A model generated the notes under the pieces. The model had not been told where the DNA came from. It made no database searches and saw only the letters and a list, made by a program, of their open reading frames with translations. This document shows, in pieces, positions 1,900 through 63,998 of a stretch of DNA of 64,000 nucleotides. Source of the DNA: Bacillota bacterium (GTDB taxonomy: Bacteria; Bacillota; Clostridia; Ch29); assembly GCA_013540605.1 (NCBI GenBank), contig JABVCK010000009.1, forward strand, positions 100,341 to 164,340, in the 5' to 3' direction. Within the stretch, counting starts at the first letter, position 1, and each line of letters opens with the position of its first letter. A program made the position numbers and the translations under genes.

Positions 1900-4587
1900 A
1901 TGAAGATGATAAGTCTGACTATTGACGGTATTAGTGTTCAGGTGCCTGATGGTACAACGATACTGGATGCTGCCGCCAGCCTGGGTATTGATGTGCCTAC
2001 CTTTTGCCATGATCCCCGGTTGAGACCGGACGGCGCCTGCAGGATATGTGTTGTGGAAGTTGAAAAGGCAAGGAGCCTGGTAACCTCCTGTTCAACTCCT
2101 GTGGGAGAAGGCATGGTAGTATATACTGACAGTCCCAGTGTGGTTGAGGCAAGAAAAGAGATACTCAGGCTGATGTGGGCAAATCACCCGTATAACTGCC
2201 TGACCTGCGAGAAGGCAGGAAACTGCAAACTGCAGGACTACAGCTACAGGTACGGTATAACCGATGAGGATATACAGCTTTTCGCCGGTGAAAAGAAGAA
2301 ACATGAGATAGACGACAGTAATAAGTTTTATATAAGCGATCAGAACAAGTGCATACTTTGCGGCAAATGCGTGAGGATTTGCGGCGAACTTCAGTGTACA
2401 AATGCCATAGGCCGTTCGGACAGGGGTTTCACTACCCATATAACGCCACCCTTTGAAATAAAGCTGGAAACCTCCGAATGCGTATCGTGCGGCAACTGTG
2501 TATCCTACTGTCCTACGGGAGCATTATCGGCGAAGAAGCCGGTAAAATACAGGGAATGGGAAGTAAAACGTGTGGACACCACCTGTACTTACTGCGGCGT
2601 AGGGTGCCAGCTGCAGCTGTTGGTAAAAGATAACAGAGTAGTAGGCGTAGAGCCGGTGAACGGTCCTGCCAATGAGGGCCTGCTGTGCGTCAAGGGTAAG
2701 TTCGGGTACAACTTCATAAACCATCCCGACAGGCTCAAAACACCGCTGATCAAGAAGGACGGCAAATTTGAAGAGGCAAGCTGGGCCGAAGCATTGGAGC
2801 TGGTAGCCGAAAAGCTATCGGAGACCCGTGACAAATACGGTCCCGACGCAGTGGCCGGGCTGTCGTCCGCAAGGTGTACCAACGAAGAGAACTACCTGTT
2901 CCAGAAGCTGATGAGGGGAGCGGTGGGCACCAACAACGTAGACCACTGCGCACGTCTCTGACACTCCTCAACCGTTGCCGGGCTGGCAACAACATTTGGG
3001 AGTGGAGCAATGACCAACAGCATAAAAGAAATAGACAAAGCCGATACAATATTCGTAATAGGCTCAAACACCACCGAGAACCACCCCGTAATAGGATCCA
3101 GGATAAAGAGAGCGGTAAAGAACGGGGCAAAGCTCATAGTAGCCGACCCAAGGGATATAGAGTTATCAAAGCATGCCACTCATTCCATGCGCTTAAAACC
3201 GGGCACCAACATAGCATTACTGAACGGCATGATGAACGTAATAATAGCCGAGGGGTTGCAGGCAGAAGAATACATAAAAGAGCGTACCGAAAACTACGAC
3301 GAGTTAAAGGAACTGGTAAAGGATTATACGCCCGAGAAGGTAGAAGAGATAACCGGCATACCCGCAGAAACAATAAAAGAAGCAGCGCGGCTGTACGCCA
3401 CCTCCGAAAGATCCATGCTGTTTTACGCCATGGGTATAACCCAGCACAGCACAGGCACCCAGCACGTATTCTCAATAGCCAACCTGGCGATGCTGTGCGG
3501 CATGGTAGGCAAAGAAGGCACCGGCGTAAACCCGTTAAGGGGCCAGAACAACGTACAGGGGGCCTGCGATGTGGGCTGTCTGCCCAACTTCATGCCCGGC
3601 TACCAGAAGGTGGGAGACCCTGTCGTAATGGAGAAGTTTGAAAAAGCATGGGGCACAAAACTATCCGACAAAGTGGGCCTCACAGTATCCGAGATAATCC
3701 ATGCCGCCGAAGAGGGGAAAGTAAAAACACTCTATATAATGGGAGAGAACCCCATGGTATCCGACCCCGACATAACCCATGTAAAGAAAGGGTTAGAAAA
3801 CTTAGACTTCTTAGTAGTCCAGGATATATTCCTGACCGAGACCGCAGAACTGGCCGACGTAGTGCTGCCCGCCGCATCCTTTGCGGAAAAGGACGGCACC
3901 TTCACCAACACCGAGCGAAGGGTGCAGAGAATAAGGAAGGCCATAGAGCCCATAGGCCAAAGCCGGGCCGACTGGGAGATAATCCAGGATATAATGAACC
4001 TCATGGGCTATACCCAGAACTTCAAAGACGCCGCCGGTATAATGGACGAAATAGCCGCTGTAACACCCCAGTACGCAGGTATCGACTATCAGCGTCTTGA
4101 AAACGGGAGCCTGCAGTGGCCGTGTCCTACCAAGGACCACCCAGGCACAGGGTATCTGCACAGCGGCAAATTCTCAAGGGGTAAAGGCCTATTTAAGCCA
4201 TCGCCCTATACACCGGCCGACGAGCAGCCCGATGATAAATACCCCTTAATCCTGACAACCGGCAGGGTGCTCTACCACTACCATACACGAACCATGACCA
4301 AGCGTGTCGAAGGGCTGGAGGCATTAGTACCCGAGAGCTATATAGAAATAAGCCCCTACACCGCGGGCAAACTGTCCGTAAAAGACGGTGACACCGTAAA
4401 AGTAAGCTCAAGGCGCGGAGAAGTAGCAGTAAAAGCAAAAGTAACCGACCGTCTGGATGACGACGTAGTATTCATGCCCTTCCACTTTGCCGAGGGCGCA
4501 GCCAACATGCTCACCAACACGGCGTTGGACAGCATAGCCAAGATACCCGAGCTAAAGGTATGCGCAGTCAAAGTAGAGAAGGTATAA
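1900..4587 (+). CDS. fdhA: Formate dehydrogenase catalytic subunit FdhA (molybdopterin/tungstopterin). Selenoprotein: UGA at 2959-2961 is read as selenocysteine.
   Basis: ORFs 1900..2961 and 3010..4587 are in the same frame (offset 1110 = 370 codons). A single TGA falls inside the conserved CAR-L-[U]-HSSTVAGL active-site motif. N-terminal 2Fe-2S and 4Fe-4S cysteine motifs are followed by an MopB and molybdopterin-binding domain. A SECIS-like hairpin lies 12 nt downstream of the UGA. Confidence 0.85.
2974..2990 (+). other. Bacterial SECIS-like hairpin (GTTGCC-GGGCT-GGCAAC) immediately 3' of the in-frame UGA
   Basis: A perfect 6-bp stem with a 5-nt loop starts 12 nt after the TGA at 2959-2961. 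Spacing and position match bacterial fdh SECIS elements. Confidence 0.6.
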
Positions 4588-4624
4588 AGTAAAATACCTT
4601 AAAAAAGGAGGAGTTATTTTATCT

Positions 4625-5494
4625 ATGGAAAAGCGAATTTTAGCACCGGCTCAGGTAGCAGACGCCATGGTAGGTGTAGGATGCAAAAAATGCAGCTTAA
4701 AGACGTCCCAGATGATGCTTTTAGGAATATTTGCAGGGATGTTCATAGCCTTCGGCGCTTTTGCATCAGGGATGATATCCCATTCTATCGAAAACGTAGG
4801 TCTAGCCAAATTTGCAGGGGCAGCAGTATTCCCCGTAGGACTAATGCTCGTAGTAATATGCGGCGCCGAACTGTTTACCGGCAACAACCTCATAACCCTG
4901 GCCCTGTTCAACAAAGAAGTAACCGTATCCCAGATGCTCAAGAACTGGGTAGTAGTATATATAGGCAACTTCATAGGTTCCATAGCAGTAGCTCTATTAA
5001 TTTACTGGTCCGGCCTTTTAAACACAAGCGGCGGTGGTCTGGGGGGTCTTGCAATACGGGTAGCCTCTGCCAAGGTAAGCCTGACAATGGGCGAAGCCGT
5101 GGTAAGGGGGATACTTTGCAACATGCTCGTAGTACTGGCGGTATGGGCGGCAATAGCAGCCCAGGACGTAATAAGCAAGATATGGGCGTGCTGGTTCCCC
5201 ATCATGCTCTTTGTACTGTCGGGTTTTGAGCACAGCATAGCCAACATGTACTTCATCCCCGTAGGCATGCTGGCCAAGGGCAGCGCCAAGCTGGCGGAGG
5301 CCAGCGGTCTTGCAGCCGACAAGCTGGCGGGTATAAACGTGGGCACATTCCTTATCAACAACATAATACCCGTAACCATAGGCAACATAATAGGCGGCGC
5401 GTTCATAGTAGGCTGGGTTTACTGGTATGTGTTCAAGGGCTGCACCAAAGCAGCCGAAGCCCCTGCCACCGCTTCCCAATCCGTTGCAAAATAG
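4625..5494 (+). CDS. focA: Formate/nitrite transporter family channel (FocA/FdhC-like)
   Basis: 289-aa polytopic membrane protein with FNT-family architecture. Sits directly after fdhA. RBS AAGGAGGAG. Confidence 0.8.
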   Translation: MEKRILAPAQVADAMVGVGCKKCSLKTSQMMLLGIFAGMFIAFGAFASGMISHSIENVGLAKFAGAAVFPVGLMLVVICGAELFTGNNLITLALFNKEVTVSQMLKNWVVVYIGNFIGSIAVALLIYWSGLLNTSGGGLGGLAIRVASAKVSLTMGEAVVRGILCNMLVVLAVWAAIAAQDVISKIWACWFPIMLFVLSGFEHSIANMYFIPVGMLAKGSAKLAEASGLAADKLAGINVGTFLINNIIPVTIGNIIGGAFIVGWVYWYVFKGCTKAAEAPATASQSVAK

Positions 5495-11211: not shown

Positions 11212-11251
11212 AGAACACAAGGTTTATTGCATGATTGAATATGGCTTGAGT

Positions 11252-11417
11252 GGGGACATTCCGCGGCAAGGAATACCCGCGTAGCAGCGGTGTGTCCCCA
11301 TACCGATCGGGGACATTCCGCGGCAAGGAATACCCGCGTAGCAGCGGTGTGTCCCCATACCGATCGGGGACATTCCGCGGCAAGGAATACCCGCGTAGCA
11401 GCGGTGTGTCCCCATAC
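11252..11417. repeat. Tandem array of a 57-bp hairpin repeat: 2 full units plus 1 slightly shorter unit. Unit is GGGGACATTCCGCGGCAAGGAATACCCGCGTAGCAGCGGTGTGTCCCCATACC(GATC).
   Basis: Units at 11252-11308, 11309-11365 and 11366-11417 are identical. The outer stem is GGGGACA/TGTCCCC and the inner stem is CGCGG/CCGCG. The array ends 18 nt before the leuC-like ATG, directly abutting the RBS AAAGGAGGA. Confidence 0.9.
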
Positions 11418-11435
11418 CTTAAAGGAGGAATTTTT

Positions 11436-12671
11436 ATGGGGCATAGCATGATCTACAAAATACTTGCTAAAAAAATAGGCGATCAGGATTTCAAGGCTGG
11501 AGAAATATATATGACACCCGCTGATCTTGTCTTCACCCATGAGGTCGGTACAGCTGGAACGATGAGGGTGCTTGACAAGATTGGTGCGACTGAGTTGTAT
11601 CCGATAGAGATGGTAATAATATCCGACCATTTTGTGCCTGCGTCTATACTAACCCATGCAATAAATCAGAAAAAGGCCCGTGATTTTGCAAAGAAATATG
11701 GCATTAGAAATTATTTTGAAATAGGGCGCGCTGGCATAGGGCATCAGGTACTTATTGAAAAAGGATTTATTCGCCCGGGAGAGATAGCCATAGCTACCGA
11801 CGCACACGCTACCACCTACGGAGCGCTGGGCTGTCTCGGTATAGGCGTTGGCGTTACCGACATGGCTGTGCTGCTCGCCAGCGGACAATATTGGCTAAAA
11901 TATCCGAAGGTACTCGGTATACGGTTGGAAGGGAAGCTGCGTCCCGGAGTCAGCGCTAAGGATGTAGCGCTTAAGCTTTTAGGCGATCTTGGCACAGATA
12001 ATCTTATTTATTGGATGGTAGAGTTTTATGGATCGGGTGTTTCAACGCTCAGTATAGACAGCCGCGCATGTTTGTGCAACATGATGTCAGAAGGTGGAGT
12101 AAAGTCATGTCTTGTTGCGCCTGACAATCTTGCGATGGAATATGTAAGTGCCAGAACGGACAAAAAATTCACTCCCTTTGTTCCCGATGAAGACGCATAC
12201 TATGACAAGTATTTAACGTTGGATCTTGACAAAGTTGAACCGATGGTCGCGATTCCCGATACACCGACAAATTGTGTGCCCCGAAAGAGCGTAAGCGGTG
12301 TGGAAATAGATCAGGCATTTATCGGTTCGTGTACTAACGGCCGTATTGAAGATTTAAGGATTGCGGCTGCTATATTGAAGGGGAAAAAGGTGCATCCCAA
12401 TGTTAGGTTGATCGTGTCTCCAGCGTCACACGAGATCTGGCAGCAAGCGCTCAACGAAGGCTTACTGACTATTTTTAACCAGAGCGGGGCGGTAGTCACT
12501 AACCCGACATGTGGAGCATGCATTGGAGCGCATGGTTTGCTTGCCCCAGGTGAGGTGTGCATCGCCACTTCAAACAGAAACTTCAAAGGCAGAATGGGAA
12601 GTATTGACGCGAAGATATATCTAGCTTCTCCTGAAACAGTAGCTTACGCTGCGCTGACAGGCAGGATATAA
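11436..12671 (+). CDS. Aconitase-family dehydratase large subunit. LeuC/HacA-like, short archaeal-type 3-isopropylmalate / homoaconitate / methylmalate dehydratase.
   Basis: 412 aa with aconitase-family Fe-S ligand regions. The ORF track's 11250 start reads through the repeat array (GTFRGKEYPRSSGVSPYRS x3) and is an artefact. The ATG at 11436 has an RBS. Confidence 0.75.
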   Translation: MGHSMIYKILAKKIGDQDFKAGEIYMTPADLVFTHEVGTAGTMRVLDKIGATELYPIEMVIISDHFVPASILTHAINQKKARDFAKKYGIRNYFEIGRAGIGHQVLIEKGFIRPGEIAIATDAHATTYGALGCLGIGVGVTDMAVLLASGQYWLKYPKVLGIRLEGKLRPGVSAKDVALKLLGDLGTDNLIYWMVEFYGSGVSTLSIDSRACLCNMMSEGGVKSCLVAPDNLAMEYVSARTDKKFTPFVPDEDAYYDKYLTLDLDKVEPMVAIPDTPTNCVPRKSVSGVEIDQAFIGSCTNGRIEDLRIAAAILKGKKVHPNVRLIVSPASHEIWQQALNEGLLTIFNQSGAVVTNPTCGACIGAHGLLAPGEVCIATSNRNFKGRMGSIDAKIYLASPETVAYAALTGRI

Positions 12672-21684: not shown

Positions 21685-21737
21685 AGTTAGTAATAGAATA
21701 TAGACAGACCGGTACATATCTAGTATAATTATTTATG

Positions 21738-21832
21738 AAAGAGCTCCGAGCCTTGGCTTCTAAGGGCAACTATGAAGCCGGGCCGATAGGGCATAAGGGG
21801 AAACCGTTGTGCCTCCCATGTTGGAAAGGAGT
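21738..21832 (+). promoter_or_regulatory. Candidate Moco/Wco riboswitch aptamer in the leader of the tungstate-transporter/moe/moa gene set
   Basis: A structured ~95-nt leader downstream of a TATAAT box (21724). It contains CUCCGAGCC, AUAGGGCAUAAGGGGAAAC, GCCUCCC and GGAAAGGAG segments, followed by an intrinsic terminator. The genomic context (tupABC, moeA, moaA, moaC) is classic for Moco RNA motifs. The motif identification is from memory and was not searched. Confidence 0.4.
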
Positions 21833-21849
21833 TATAAACAGCTGATTTT

Positions 21850-21890
21850 ATAGCGGTTTCCATCATGGATGGAACCGCTATATTTATTTC
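21850..21890 (+). terminator. Intrinsic terminator/attenuator hairpin (ATAGCGGTTTCCATC-atg-GATGGAACCGCTAT) with a U-rich tail, immediately after the riboswitch-like leader
   Basis: 14-15-bp stem with one bulge, followed by ATTTATTTC. Confidence 0.6.
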
Positions 21891-21920
21891 TGTACCTCCT
21901 TTCCCCAGTAAAATCTTATT

Positions 21921-21967
21921 GGGGACATTCCGCGGCAAGGAATACCCGCCCTCAGCGGTGTGTCCCC
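21921..21967. repeat. Single copy of the GGGGACATTCCGCGGCAAGGAATACCCGC...GCGGTGTGTCCCC hairpin repeat in the tupA 5' UTR
   Basis: Same ends and outer stem as the 57-bp tandem unit at 11252. It ends 23 nt before the tupA ATG. Confidence 0.85.
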
Positions 21968-21990
21968 AAACATTAATTGGGGGTATTGAA

Positions 21991-36224: not shown

Positions 36225-36248
36225 CGGGGACATTCCGTGGTGAGTCCC
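36225..36248. repeat. Minimal copy of the GGGGACATTCC...GTCCCC hairpin (GGGGACATTCCGTGGTGAGTCCCC) in the rnfA-rnfB junction / rnfB 5' region
   Basis: Same 5' end (GATCGGGGACATTCCG) as the 57-bp unit. It lies 25 nt before the rnfB ATG. Confidence 0.6.
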
Positions 36249-36272
36249 CTGACCTTATTGGAGGTGAAAAAA

Positions 36273-37307
36273 ATGGATAATACAGTCCTAATTGCAGTAG
36301 TAAGTATGGGCGCTATAGGAGTGTTTTTCGCCGCTTTCCTTGCCTTTGCATCTACAAAATTCGCTGTTGAGGAGGACCCGAGGGTCGAAGCGGTGCAGAG
36401 CATACTCCCGGGGGCGAACTGCGGTGCCTGTGGGCAGGCAGGGTGCTCCAACTTTGCTGCGGCTGTTGTAGCCGGAGAAGTACCGGTATACGGCTGTCCG
36501 GTGGGCGGCAGTGAAACAGGTGACAAGATTGCCGAAATCCTGGGTATGGAAGGCAGCGGTGGCAGCGGAGGCAAAAAAGCTGTTGCAAAGGTTATGTGTA
36601 ATGGTGATGACGAAAAATGCAAGAACAAATATAGATATATCGGCGTTCAGGACTGCGTGGCGGCAAGCAGGATGGCCGGTGGCGGTCCAAAGGCGTGTGA
36701 ATACGGCTGTCTGGGCCTGGGGACATGCGTGGGGGTATGTCCGGTGGATGCCATTACGATAAGCGAGGATGGTCTTGCGGTAATAGATGAGGAAAAGTGC
36801 ATAGGATGCGAAAAATGCGTTGCCGCATGTCCTAAGAATGTAATCAGGATGGTACCGTACGGACAGCAGGTGCACGTGATGTGCAACAACCCTGAACCCG
36901 GGAAAATCGTCAGGAAAAAGTGTGAGGTGGGCTGCATCGCTTGCAAAAAATGCGAGAAGGCATGTAAATTCGATGCCATTCACGTGGAAGGCAATCTCGC
37001 TAAGATAGACTATGAAAAATGTACTGAATGTATGGAGTGCGTGAAGGCCTGTCCTACCTATACAATCGTGGGGGATCTGGAAAACAGGAAAATAGCCAGG
37101 ATCCTTGAAGACAAATGCATCAAATGTACGATATGCAAAAAGAACTGTCCCTTTGAGGCGATAGAGGGTGAAGTCAAACAGCCCCACAGAGTCCTTGAAG
37201 ACATTTGTGTCGGGTGCGGGGTTTGTTACGAGAAATGTCCTAAAGACGCTATCGAGATGATAGGTAGCAAAGTCGAAAAAAACAAAAATTCAAAGGAAGT
37301 TGTTTAA
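36273..37307 (+). CDS. rnfB: Rnf complex subunit B (polyferredoxin type)
   Basis: N-terminal TM, a 4Fe-4S Fe-S-binding region (CGACGQAGC...GCPVGG) and multiple C-x2-C-x2-C-x3-CP motifs. The ATG at 36273 has a GGAGGTG RBS. Confidence 0.85.
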   Translation: MDNTVLIAVVSMGAIGVFFAAFLAFASTKFAVEEDPRVEAVQSILPGANCGACGQAGCSNFAAAVVAGEVPVYGCPVGGSETGDKIAEILGMEGSGGSGGKKAVAKVMCNGDDEKCKNKYRYIGVQDCVAASRMAGGGPKACEYGCLGLGTCVGVCPVDAITISEDGLAVIDEEKCIGCEKCVAACPKNVIRMVPYGQQVHVMCNNPEPGKIVRKKCEVGCIACKKCEKACKFDAIHVEGNLAKIDYEKCTECMECVKACPTYTIVGDLENRKIARILEDKCIKCTICKKNCPFEAIEGEVKQPHRVLEDICVGCGVCYEKCPKDAIEMIGSKVEKNKNSKEVV

Positions 37308-37334
37308 ACCGGTGAGGTTCACCGGTTTTTTTCT
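37308..37334 (+). terminator. Rho-independent terminator (AACCGGTGA-ggt-TCACCGGTT plus TTTTTTT) after rnfB
   Basis: Perfect 9-bp stem with a T7 run immediately after the stop codon. Confidence 0.8.
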
Positions 37335-38964: not shown

Positions 38965-39085
38965 GGGGACATTCCGCCGCAAGGAACTTTAATGGGGACA
39001 TTTCTTGGCCATAAAGGAATACTAAAAATGAAGGTGTGTCCCCTGGCCTTATAGGCGCAGCGGTGTGTCCCCATACCTTAAAAGG
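38965..39085. repeat. Composite, nested copy of the GGGGACATT...TGTCCCC hairpin element. The 5' half of one unit is followed by an inserted variant unit and then the 3' half.
   Basis: GGGGACATTCCGCCGCAAGGAAC // GGGGACATTTCTTGGCC...GTGTGTCCCC // TGGCCTTATAGGCGCAGCGGTGTGTCCCCATACC. It ends 8 nt before the RBS of the DUF1015 gene with the same CCATACC-TTAAAAGGAGGA junction as at 11417. Confidence 0.8.
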
Positions 39086-39093
39086 AGGACAAT

Positions 39094-58222: not shown

Positions 58223-58448
58223 ACCATCGCCTCCGAAGATATTATACTATAGGAAGGATAATAAAAAAAGCGCCTCCCGCACTCCGCTATGGAACCCTAG
58301 GTTCCTTCGGCGTCCGGCACTTACTCATATATGCTTCCTTACTCTTATATACTTTGTAGTAAGTGCCGGACTGAGCACCCTCCTTAAACCGGCGGGGAAC
58401 CTTTCCCCTGCACCCCTTCCTTTTTTTATAACACTCTCGAAAACTCGT

Positions 58449-61173: not shown

Positions 61174-62131
61174 TTATTCACACATCTGGAGAATCATCTC
61201 CCTTTGCACTGAAGCCGCATAAGACTCAGATGCGGCCCTATATATCTTCTTGAGGTCTTCCATGAATTCCTTCTGATCCTTATATGCCACATACTTCATG
61301 GAGTTACGAATCTGGTGAATGATGCAGGTTTGGATCTCCACTTGAGGGAACACCGTCTTTATCGCATCCGGAAAGCCTTTCAGTCCGTCGATACAGGCAA
61401 TGAGGATATCCTGTACGCCCCGGTTTTTAAGGTCGTTACAGACACCCAGCCAGAACTTCGCCCCTTCGCTTTCCCCAATCCAAATACCAAGGATATCCTT
61501 GTATCCTTCCCTGTTGATACCTAGGCAGATGTACGCCGCTTTGGAAACTATTTTCCCATCATCTCGTACCTTGTAATGTATGGCATCGAGGTATATGATG
61601 GGATACATCTTGTCTAGCACCCGGTTCTGCCAATCGGCAGCTGCACCCATAACTTTGTCGGTGATGGTAGATATCATAGCGGGCGACACATTGATTCCGT
61701 AGATTTCTTCCAGTTGGGCTTTGATATCCCGCGTGGTCATGCCTTTTGCGTACATGGCTATAACCTTTTTGTCCAAGTCATTGCAGACCGTCTCGTATTT
61801 CTGTACAACGACCGGTTCAAATTCACTCTTGCGATCTCTAGGGATATCCAATTCCATCTCACCCATGCTGTTTTTGATTGTCTTCTGACTATGGCCGTTT
61901 CTGTGATTGTCGGATGGTTCGTCAGCACGCTCATATTTGTCTCGCCCTAAATGGTGGGCCATTTCGCCTTCGAGCATATTCTGGATGACATCTGATTGCT
62001 TTGTGCCGCGTGCGGGTTTGAGTTCGGAAAAGTTCCTTTAAGTTTTTAAGGTACAGTGCCTGAATGGGCTCGAAAATGCCGGTCGATTGGCTGCTTCCTG
62101 CTAAAACTGAGCTGGAATGCCTAATTACCAA
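61174..62131 (-). pseudogene. IS256-family (Mutator-type) transposase remnant, truncated at both ends and possibly frameshifted
   Basis: The 267-aa ORF covers the central DDE region (EAEMTEHLG-like LEGEMAHHLGRDKYE, ...DGLKGFPDAI...). It lacks ~100 N-terminal and ~90 C-terminal residues of ~400-aa IS256 transposases. An upstream short ORF carries an N-terminal fragment in another frame. Confidence 0.65.
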
Positions 62132-62588: not shown

Positions 62589-63998
62589 TTAGGAAAATAC
62601 CAAGGATAATTTACAATTATGAGCCGGTTTTTGCTTCAAATTTACTCTATTTATGCCTGTTTCCTTGGTTCTTTCATCCCTTTCAGCTAAAAATGGGCGC
62701 ACTATCCCTGGTAGTGGAATATTGGTAGTTTTTGGTTTATATCCACCTTGCAAGTATTTGATGAACCGTTTGATGTTCTGTACAGTTACCTTCAATCCAC
62801 ATACTACAGTGCTTTTAGCTTTTCCACGGACATCAAGCTTATCCAGTCCTGACCTTTTCAACGCAGAATTGCTGCCTTCGATTCCTGCACGTTTACTCGT
62901 GTTCTCTTTTCTGCTTGCTTTCATTGTTTCACGTTCTCGACCAGTTTTTACTGCCTTGAGGGGTATACGGATAACACAGTCTTTGACTTGCTTCTTACTA
63001 TAGCATTGTTTGCGATACTCACAGTTAGCACAGGCCTCATGGGGAAAATGTGCTGATGTCTGTCCTCCGCTTACTCCGGCATGAGTTGGAATGTATCCTC
63101 CGGGGCATTTATTAATTATGTTTGTGGTTTCATCTATGTCAAATTCGGTTACAGGCAGTTTCTTTGTCGGCTCTGTCCCGCTCATGTTAGTCAGGTGGAT
63201 TTCTATTCCGTTTTCCTTTGCGGTTTGATGGACATGCTCGGAGTGGAAGCCTCCATCTACATACATGTCGGTACAGCCGGTGTTTTCATGGATTCCCTTT
63301 AATCGATCCTGCAGGATTTCTACATCGCTGGTGTTATTGGATTCAACCGCATAATCGGTGATGAGTTGAAAGGTGTTTCCCTTGTCGCAGGTTTCGGATA
63401 TTTCAAGGACATAACCGCTCTGGCTCACATTCCCTTTCCTGCGAAAGGTAGCGTCTTCATCATGCGCTGCCTGGAGGGACCCGGATGGAATTTCCTTCTT
63501 TGGCTTGGGGATGAGTTTTCCGCTTTCCGCTTCGGTTGTGGATTGTTCGCTTAAGAATCGCCTAACTATCCGTACTTCTTCAGAATCCAGCATGTCGGGC
63601 TGTGCTTCCAGTATCAAAAGCGCTTCCTGGCAGAGATTTAAAAGCAGTGTCAGCTTGCTGTCTCCTTCTTGTGCTTTTGCACGATAGAGCACATCGGTTT
63701 TGAAGTCCGGCTCCAACACGTTGGAAAGAGAGCCTGTGAGTTTCTCCTTTGGTATTGCTTTGACTGCCTTAACCAGTACGTCATAAGCCAGAGATACCCG
63801 CCCTGCTTTCTTGATGTTGCTCATAAAGAGTGTGGTGTCTGTCCTTTGTTCTTCCAGAGATATTCCGGCTTCTTTCGCAAAATCACGAAGCAGCTTGATA
63901 AACTGGCCGAACAAGAGGTCATCCTTGCCGGGGTTCTCCAGGCAGTACTGATAGACTCTTTCCCTGAAATAGTAGAGGGTTCTTTCGGCAAGGTTCAT
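62589..63998 (-). mobile_element. IS1182/IS5-superfamily transposase gene (DDE_Tnp_1). The ORF start is at or beyond the window edge.
   Basis: 469-aa ORF with a D-E-D-A-T-F-R-x-K motif and the C-terminal RAGIEGSNSALKRSGLDKLDVRGKAKSTVVCGLKVTVQNIKRFIKYL block typical of IS1182-family transposases. The ATG at 63996-63998 is 2 nt from the window end. Confidence 0.6.

Follow-up and report, generated by a model that had tools for sequence, protein, structure and literature searches.

The repetitive extragenic palindromic sequences (REPs) of Proteobacteria, including bacterial interspersed mosaic elements (BIMEs) and REPINs, are multi-copy, G+C-rich imperfect palindromes of 21-65 bp that are mobilised by REP-associated tyrosine transposases (RAYTs) of the Y1/HUH kind (PMC3184786, PMC3116915, PMC3733652). 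They are extragenic or intercistronic, often located just after stop codons, occur singly or in clusters and show no target-site duplication; they are regarded as non-autonomous elements that move as single-stranded DNA hairpins, and they affect mRNA stability (PMC3184786, PMC3116915, PMC3733652). Moreover, they are themselves targets, since the insertion sequences (ISs) IS1397/ISKpn1 and IS621/IS1594 insert specifically into REP sequences (PMC3184786). Here we describe a hairpin repeat found in a 64,000-nt stretch of the genome of a Bacillota bacterium (contig JABVCK010000009.1, hereafter the window), in which one copy, between a histidine-kinase gene and a DUF1015 gene, carries a second copy inside itself. 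This locus is probably a two-level nested member of a non-autonomous, mobile family of hairpin repeats resembling REPs and MITEs (miniature inverted-repeat transposable elements).

At this locus, one complete unit with both of its tails sits in the apical loop of another unit, which belongs to a different sub-family (coordinates in Table 1). An initial annotation of the window had proposed that the 5′ and 3′ halves of a unit are separated here by a complete variant unit, and direct reading confirmed both its strings and its coordinates. The half-sites follow the order 5′-5′-3′-3′, not 5′-3′-5′-3′, and the inner hairpin lies within the loop of a second complete unit spanning 38965-39072. The first 22 nt of the 5′ arm of the outer unit match the four other full units of the window with one mismatch. 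The second stems of the two units differ (TCTT/AAGG in the inner one, whose loop includes AAAGGAATAC, and CCGC/GCGG in the outer one), and each arm pairs with its own partner through 4 bp, outer 5′ with outer 3′ and inner 5′ with inner 3′, while the cross pairings are reduced to the invariant 2 bp. Since inner and outer arms pair only with their own partners, the locus is neither a pair of units in tandem nor the outcome of duplicating the outer unit. Furthermore, the inner unit has the two flanking tails typical of stand-alone units: its 3′ tail fits the family profile, and its 5′ tail, TTTAAT, fits at -6 (T), -3 (A) and -1 (T/C), with an A at -2, where a T is usual.

The predicted RNA fold of 113 nt is a hairpin within a hairpin, at -47.5 kcal/mol and z = -4.35, and the nested fold is predicted identically for both DNA strands. 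The composite is present at the same locus of an independent assembly, GCA_030017455.1 (L119; L-numbers denote loci fetched for comparison), with a single substitution, TTTCTT to TTCCTT, that gives the inner unit CCTT in place of TCTT; it is thus not an assembly artefact. No stand-alone copy of the inner unit was found in the sample, which is limited to loci with the outer-type pattern. A role as intrinsic terminator was considered and rejected: a terminator scan that flagged the true terminator after rnfB (37306-37328) did not flag the composite, and the tail of the latter reads ATACCTTA.

The nesting is not peculiar to this locus. A scan of species-representative genomes with the pattern GGGGACATT-N22-50-GGTGTGTCCCC detected the hairpin in at least 118 loci, and a scan of metagenomes with the pattern of the window's own sub-family added 54 further loci, mostly from one population, Ga0067045, which makes more than 170 loci across both scans. 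When about 190 non-redundant clusters were written as strings of 5′ and 3′ half-sites, about a third turned out to be nested or stacked. Single units (53) account for 94 clusters and simple tandems (5353) for nine; 18 clusters read 5533 and five read 555333, while unequal numbers of halves give 553 in 16 clusters and 533 in nine, with single clusters of the 53333 and 5555533 types. Deeper stacks such as 5555333353 and 53555533333 also occur, the maximum being five 5′ halves, and the number of copies per locus goes from one to more than five. The family nests as a regular habit, and the units of a cluster always share one orientation: nested composites number 30 in the same orientation against none inverted, and tandem adjacencies 35 direct against at most one inverted.

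Six of the 5533 composites, including that of the window, are heterologous, and in all of them the second stems match between own partners, the cross pairings being again the invariant 2 bp. L004 holds three complete minimal hairpins whose nesting falls exactly at GGGGACATT^CC (^ marks the break). Within Ga0067045, no fewer than six different inner units are found in this same outer unit, always interrupting it in the same part of its loop: the break reads ...AAGGAATAC^ATC (GGAATAC^ATC) at ten loci, ...AAGGAATGTC^AAWT (GGAATGTC^AAWT) at four and ...AAGGAAC^TTTAAT at two. The uninterrupted outer form occurs in L155, where the loop reads GGAATACCTTAAATCAGCGG and consequently contains the tail-like motif ATACCTTAAA. 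Together with own-partner pairing and the two inner tails, this variety of inner units within one outer unit upholds the idea, already advanced in the initial annotation, that one unit was inserted into another. Stacks of identical half-units have also been found (L112, L115, L099, L164). In addition, the tandem junction ATACC^GATC is identical at no fewer than six loci from at least two organisms (L121, L127, L138, L154, L160 and window positions 11300-11365); it may represent either an insertion junction that is reproducible or the joint within an intermediate of circular or multimeric form.

The comparison of orthologous loci, also suggested at the outset, separates occupied from empty sites. 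In closer relatives (L182 and L183, DUF1015 proteins 89% identical) the 3′ part of the composite is present and the contigs break inside it. In a more distant one (L184-L187, 67% identical), which shares with the window the gene order Rnf-histidine kinase-DUF1015-PHP-his, the spacer between the kinase and DUF1015 genes is TAA-ACAG-AGGAGG-TTAAT-ATG, and in another (L188, 62% identical) it is TAG-CATAGGGAGGGGCAT-ATG. Both measure 15 nt, against 133 nt in the window, so that the window spacer can be read as the 15-nt operon spacer plus about 118 nt inserted between the fourth nucleotide after the stop codon and the Shine-Dalgarno sequence. The outer tail is absent from the empty spacers as well; hence the CCTTA tail appears to be carried by the element, not provided by the target, and ATACCTTAAA arrived with the insert. 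No unit exists in the 21 kb of L187, where the spacer orthologous to that between rnfA and rnfB also lacks the minimal unit that the window has there.

Moreover, a metagenomic locus with different, unrelated flanking genes (L151) is 92.4% identical to the window composite over 119 nt and shares its two junctions and its inner unit, which indicates that the composite was copied as one piece. The metagenome contigs that carry the window's sub-family match the window at the DNA level in the repeats only, their protein matches being 27-57% identical and of uncertain orthology. The empty sites in two relatives and the whole composite at another locus thus give substance to the mobility that had been proposed from the self-insertion. 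Matched loci have also been remodelled, units having been gained or replaced, as illustrated by L123 (53) versus L125 (553) and by L002 (5533) versus L021 (553).

As regards the unit itself, its consensus can be written GGGGACATT-CCNN...NNGG-TGTGTCCCC followed by the tail WTWCCTTA, and it begins with a short AT-rich 5′ tail, continues as an imperfect hairpin whose second stem, 4-5 bp long, co-varies and whose loop measures from 3 to about 140 nt, and ends in the 3′ tail; the shortest units measure 24-31 nt. The invariant termini, GGGGACATT(CC) and (GG)TGTGTCCCC, pair with fixed T.G and T.T mismatches, and the stem consists of 11 bp plus two to five additional pairs, the first two of which co-vary. 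Of 152 distinct units, 96% pair at positions 12/27 and 95% at positions 13/26, versus 69% and 65% in shuffles, by means of TA, GC and CG pairs; the T.T at 9/30 occurs in 145 of the 152, and the T.G at 8/31 is nearly invariant. The hairpin stem is under selection. The 5′ flank is characterised by T at -6, A at -3, T at -2 and T/C at -1, and the 3′ tail follows W-T-W-C-C-T-T-A from +1 to +8, with C in 93-97% at +4, C in about 80% at +5, T at +6 and +7 and A/T at +8. Much larger members exist too: in Ga0067045, L128 and L132 (and the edges of L121, L135, L139 and L144) have the same termini around interiors of about 140 nt, rich in low-complexity sequence such as gatcacagatcac or ctggcaactgg-like runs.

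The hosts are anaerobic Bacillota, among them Peptococcaceae, Desulfotomaculum, Desulfocucumis, Desulfosporosinus, Pelotomaculum, Formimonas, Syntrophomonas, Sedimentibacter and other Tissierellia, and they span at least the NCBI classes Clostridia and Tissierellia, besides a few metagenome-assembled genomes (MAGs) labelled as other phyla. The clusters are intergenic in 138 of 144 cases. Their orientation relative to the flanking genes is balanced (38 same/same, 39 opposite/opposite), and a test of end adjacency in the diverse set gives 66 antisense against 38 sense. Of the 41 clusters in the set formed by the window and its metagenome relatives, 23 lie in sense orientation 20-28 nt upstream of a start codon. 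A convergent gene 3′ of a unit very often uses the TTA of the tail, 5-8 nt away, as its stop codon. Elsewhere, the downstream genes include those for ribosomal proteins, GatA/B, ProS and IspG, as judged by inspection of the translations.

The family is large and apparently undescribed. Neither sequence-string nor topic searches of the literature turned up an account of the repeat, and the taxa that bear it are not covered by the REP and HUH surveys and the repeat review consulted. In Rfam 15, the gathering-level matches of the window are a molybdenum cofactor (Moco) riboswitch and Clostridiales-2 only, none of them on the repeat, and permissive scans of the units gave sub-threshold matches only, all far below the gathering scores. 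Carriage by phages or plasmids was rejected, given that the phage and plasmid collections contain no blastn match and viral contigs only about four distinct loci, one of them a doubtful high-GC case.

In Peptococcaceae and Desulfocucumis MAGs, the units are also found between two other conserved hairpins (…GCTAACAGCCTGTAAGACCCCG…CGGGGATTAACAGGCTGT… and GTTCGGTAGGGGAATAACCCCTTCCGAAC), or replacing the apex of these, as in L002 (about 4300-4850), L021, L038, L085, L100, L016, L063, L116, L030, L051 and L075. The units and the two hairpins make up a larger multi-copy element with compensatory changes between genomes, in which the unit takes either orientation. Rfam gave no match to this larger element, nor any family in scans of the flanking structures of L116, L063, L016, L030, L075 and L002. 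Several of the repeat-bearing genomes are Peptococcaceae, a family with several members in which unexplained helical expansion segments of 5S rRNA and large insertions in 16S and 23S rRNA genes have been described (PMC7812874); the expansion segments may possibly be linked to the repeat.

How could such units spread? The fixed mismatches, the motif that ends 8 nt past the stem, the lack of target-site duplication and the orientation specificity recall elements that HUH/Y1 transposases (REP/RAYT, IS200/IS605) handle as folded single strands. A unit would travel in this folded, single-stranded form with the help of an enzyme encoded elsewhere and acting in trans; the first candidate for this enzyme would be a HUH/Y1 transposase of the RAYT or IS200/IS605 kind. 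In an extruded unit, the apical loop is single-stranded and often contains a tail-like CCTTA; this loop may constitute a favoured, strand-specific target, and its use would build the nested stacks. Nesting creates direct repeats, and slippage between these would then delete or multiply half-units; insertion with such deletion afterwards explains why 5′ and 3′ half-sites are unequal in number. When transcribed, the nested hairpin of the window would give an intercistronic stem-loop of very high stability, 21 nt upstream of the start codon of the DUF1015 gene; by analogy with REPs, it would probably be a passive barrier in mRNA stability or processing, not a specific regulator. A broader proposal is more doubtful, and we put it forward only tentatively: that this is a new cross-class family of single-hairpin mobile elements in anaerobic Bacillota, with strand-specific targeting of the single-stranded apical loops of its own members, whose co-oriented nested stacks are copied as composites, whose mobilising enzyme is other than a classical RAYT or IS200 TnpA, and whose hairpins have secondarily become modular intercistronic stem-loops before ribosome-binding sites (RBSs).

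Several results weigh against mobility of this kind. Probes for IS200 TnpA and RAYT retrieved nothing significant by tblastn in 1.34 Mb of fetched loci, no transposase was noticed beside units when ORF translations were read, and the genes between inverted units look like housekeeping genes on inspection of their translations, made without a family search. Target-site duplications, which the initial annotation had proposed to look for, are not visible, the insertion point being ambiguous by a few bases, and no fixed target can be defined. The flank profiles differ (5′ T..ATY, 3′ WTWCCTTA) and contain no direct repeat; a TAA duplication at the composite was entertained and rejected because other loci of the window do not have it. 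The CCTTA tail is similar to the CCTYN strand found after the insertion point in some nested stacks, L004 among them, and tail and target are therefore not cleanly separable. A strict lagging-strand mechanism would predict a strand bias, and the diverse set has no consistent bias relative to GC skew (54 versus 65), which counts against it; the sub-family set has a moderate one (26 versus 11). The relatives with empty sites are only 62-67% identical at the protein level, and the comparison therefore does not give the exact ancestral spacer sequence. Finally, the accumulation of sense clusters shortly before start codons could reflect selection for a role at the RNA level, not mobility alone.

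This last point leads to the reading of the repeat as a functional structured RNA of 5′ untranslated or intercistronic regions, bound by a protein or acting as stabiliser or attenuator, with the nested form as a selected elaboration and not an insertion. Every cluster of the window is sense with its 3′ end at a nearly constant distance from a start codon, the second stem co-varies, the fixed mismatches would be U.G and U.U, tolerated in RNA on this strand only, and the termini are conserved across two bacterial classes. We nevertheless consider it unlikely, given that antisense clusters are at least as common in the diverse set, the downstream genes are unrelated, the element is wholly absent from orthologous loci of relatives, the number of copies per locus varies and no Rfam family is matched. 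Besides, within a short operon spacer an insertion finds room only after the stop codon and before the Shine-Dalgarno sequence, which explains the tight distances to starts and stops without any regulatory role. A riboswitch-like 5′ element was rejected because both orientations occur and the downstream genes are unrelated, and mimicry of Shine-Dalgarno and anti-Shine-Dalgarno sequences by a CCTCC/GGAGG second stem was dropped, since the window's sub-family uses CCGC/GCGG.

The remaining explanations account for the nesting itself in other ways. Local slippage or template switching might have duplicated parts of a single unit with no second element involved, as the stacks of identical half-units and the frequent unequal halves would lead one to think; for the window locus this is very unlikely, because the inner unit has a second stem, a loop and tails unlike those of the outer one, no arm pairs with any but its own partner, the same outer unit elsewhere holds at least six unrelated inner ones, and slippage deletion following insertion explains the unequal counts (L002 and L021; L123 and L125). 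The internal duplication initially offered as an alternative is hence rejected as the origin of 38965-39072, although it does persist as a secondary process elsewhere in the family. Even harder to credit is that the units are sites of a site-specific recombinase, like the attC sites of integrons, nested by recombination between sites and not by transposition: the hairpins are imperfect, their mismatches fixed and their loops variable in length, and these traits, together with the strict co-orientation and the recurrent ATACC^GATC junction, are in keeping with it, but the ends have no integron-like core sites (RYYYAAC/GTTRRRY), the units lie 9-12 nt apart or nested, with neither gene cassettes nor ORFs (open reading frames) between them, they are scattered singly among apparently housekeeping genes, and no recombinase gene was noticed in the ORFs beside them when translations were read by eye, with no systematic scan. 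As for a mere divergent tandem pair, which the initial annotation had set against its own interpretation, tandem arrays of the unit do exist (11252-11413), yet the 5533 order, the outer-outer and inner-inner pairing and the nested predicted folds leave it practically no room.

A mobile hairpin repeat being thus the reading we favour, its kinship must be considered. The repeat behaves like REPs or miniature IS200/IS605-type elements, yet it departs from both in several respects. It shares with REPs the short imperfect palindrome, the many copies, the extragenic location and the lack of target-site duplication; however, it does not carry the GTAG/CGTC tag, either in its termini (GGGGACAT, TGTGTCCCC) or in its flank profiles. 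REPINs and BIMEs are built from inverted pairs, whereas the clusters described here are co-oriented, in tandem or nested; REPs are usually lineage-specific, while these termini are conserved across families and two classes, and both tails are conserved as well. No RAYT was found in the fetched loci, and the hosts, anaerobic Bacillota, are unmentioned in the REP surveys consulted.

The ends of IS200/IS605 elements are likewise imperfect hairpins with fixed mismatches, read on one strand, with a short motif beyond the hairpin foot, orientation-specific insertion and no target-site duplication. In IS608, the cleavage site is about 10 nt 3′ of the right-end hairpin, a position comparable to that of CCTTA in the repeat. 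Unlike the latter, which has one hairpin per unit, those elements have two different end hairpins and a 4-5-nt target 5′ of the left end; a fixed target is not demonstrable for the repeat, nor was TnpA detected by the probes mentioned above.

Bacterial MITEs such as Nezha, Chunjie, Correia and ERIC (enterobacterial repetitive intergenic consensus) are similarly small, non-coding and intergenic, with inverted termini, sometimes upstream of genes, and their presence at orthologous sites varies, as it does here (L184-L188 empty, L182 and L183 occupied). ERIC also has longer variants arising from internal insertions. MITEs differ in having target-site duplications and an identifiable parent IS, neither of which was found for the repeat, whose units go down to 24-31 nt; in the literature searched, five-level self-nesting is not described as a habit of bacterial MITEs. 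With IS1397/ISKpn1 and IS621/IS1594 the family has in common that a repeat hairpin is the preferred target of another mobile element, but those are full-length ISs and here the incoming element belongs to the same miniature family. The attC sites of integrons, in turn, consist of R″ and R′ cores (RYYYAAC ... GTTRRRY) with cassettes, which the repeat termini do not fit.

Work on REP-type repeats and their transposases has dealt almost entirely with Proteobacteria. In Clostridia and Tissierellia, a widespread counterpart that is co-oriented and self-nesting and has conserved tails would widen the range of miniature mobile DNA and would point to a mobilising enzyme yet to be identified. From a practical perspective, hairpins of up to about -47 kcal/mol between co-transcribed genes deserve to be annotated and considered in expression studies of syntrophic, sulfate-reducing and dehalogenating anaerobes. 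The units also break short-read assemblies: the Logan contigs L120 (1-34), L182 and L183 (both 1-58) end inside units upstream of the DUF1015 gene.

The other copies of the window are collected in Table 1 together with the parts of the composite. The canonical unit is GGGGACATTCCGCGGCAAGGAATACCCGCGTAGCAGCGGTGTGTCCCC, followed by ATACC. The pattern GGGGACA-N10-40-TGTCCCC has five matches in the window, against 0.00 in 100 shuffles, and each of the two half-unit motifs has five, against 0.01-0.02 expected. All copies are on the + strand and have a start codon 21-26 nt beyond their 3′ ends; the genes downstream of them are of unrelated kinds (aconitase family, solute-binding protein, RnfB and DUF1015). 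The tandem array lies 22 nt upstream of the aconitase-family gene (ATG 11436). The unit between rnfA and rnfB is the 24-nt minimal form (36226-36249).

Table 1. Units of the hairpin repeat and neighbouring signals in the window
Feature	Position	Strand	Remarks
Three tandem canonical units	11252-11299, 11309-11356, 11366-11413 (11252-11418 with terminal tail ATACC)	+	9-nt junctions ATACCGATC
Single unit	21921-21972 (hairpin 21921-21967)	+	between the terminator after the Moco riboswitch and the RBS of the PBP_like_2 gene (ATG 21991)
Minimal degenerate unit GGGGACATTCCGTGGTGAGTCCCC with tail TGACCTTA	36226-36257	+	between rnfA/E-like gene and rnfB (ATG 36273)
Histidine-kinase gene, stop codon TAA	38958-38960		followed by TTTC; ORF with HisKA and HATPase_c
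Outer unit, 5′ arm GGGGACATTCCGCCGCAAGGAAC	38965-38987	+	terminus GGGGACATT, second-stem strand CCGCCGC, loop start AAGGAAC
Inner unit, 5′ tail TTTAAT	38988-38993	+	partial fit to the family 5′-flank profile
Inner unit, complete 50-nt hairpin GGGGACATTTCTTGGCCATAAAGGAATACTAAAAATGAAGGTGTGTCCCC	38994-39043	+	termini GGGGACATT and GGTGTGTCCCC
Inner unit, 3′ tail TGGCCTTA	39044-39051	+	fits the family 3′-tail profile
Outer unit, 3′ arm TAGGCGCAGCGGTGTGTCCCC	39052-39072	+	TAG, GCG-CA-GCGG, TGTGTCCCC; pairs with 38965-38987
Outer unit, 3′ tail ATACCTTA	39073-39080	+	runs into A-tract and Shine-Dalgarno sequence
DUF1015 gene start	39083-39088 (Shine-Dalgarno AGGAGG), 39094 (ATG)	+	

Two transposase genes are present in the window, a truncated Transposase_mut of the Mutator/IS256 type (61174-61977, - strand, profile positions 38-290 of 379) and a DDE_Tnp_1/DDE_Tnp_1_6 (62589-63998, - strand); no GGGGACA-type terminus lies near either, and they appear unrelated to the termini of the repeat. 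At 21732-21972, a Moco/tungsten riboswitch (RF01055, 68.7 bits), a terminator hairpin and a repeat unit follow one another before the PBP_like_2 solute-binding gene, so that the unit lies between the expression platform of the riboswitch and the RBS that it controls. A Clostridiales-2 RNA (RF02937, 65.2 bits) at 58300-58425 on the - strand appears unrelated to the repeat. Finally, naive ORF calls can read through the arrays: the mechanically listed ORF 11250-12671 starts within the tandem array and fuses three copies of the peptide MGTFRGKEYPRSSGVSPY to the aconitase-family gene, whose real start is at 11436.

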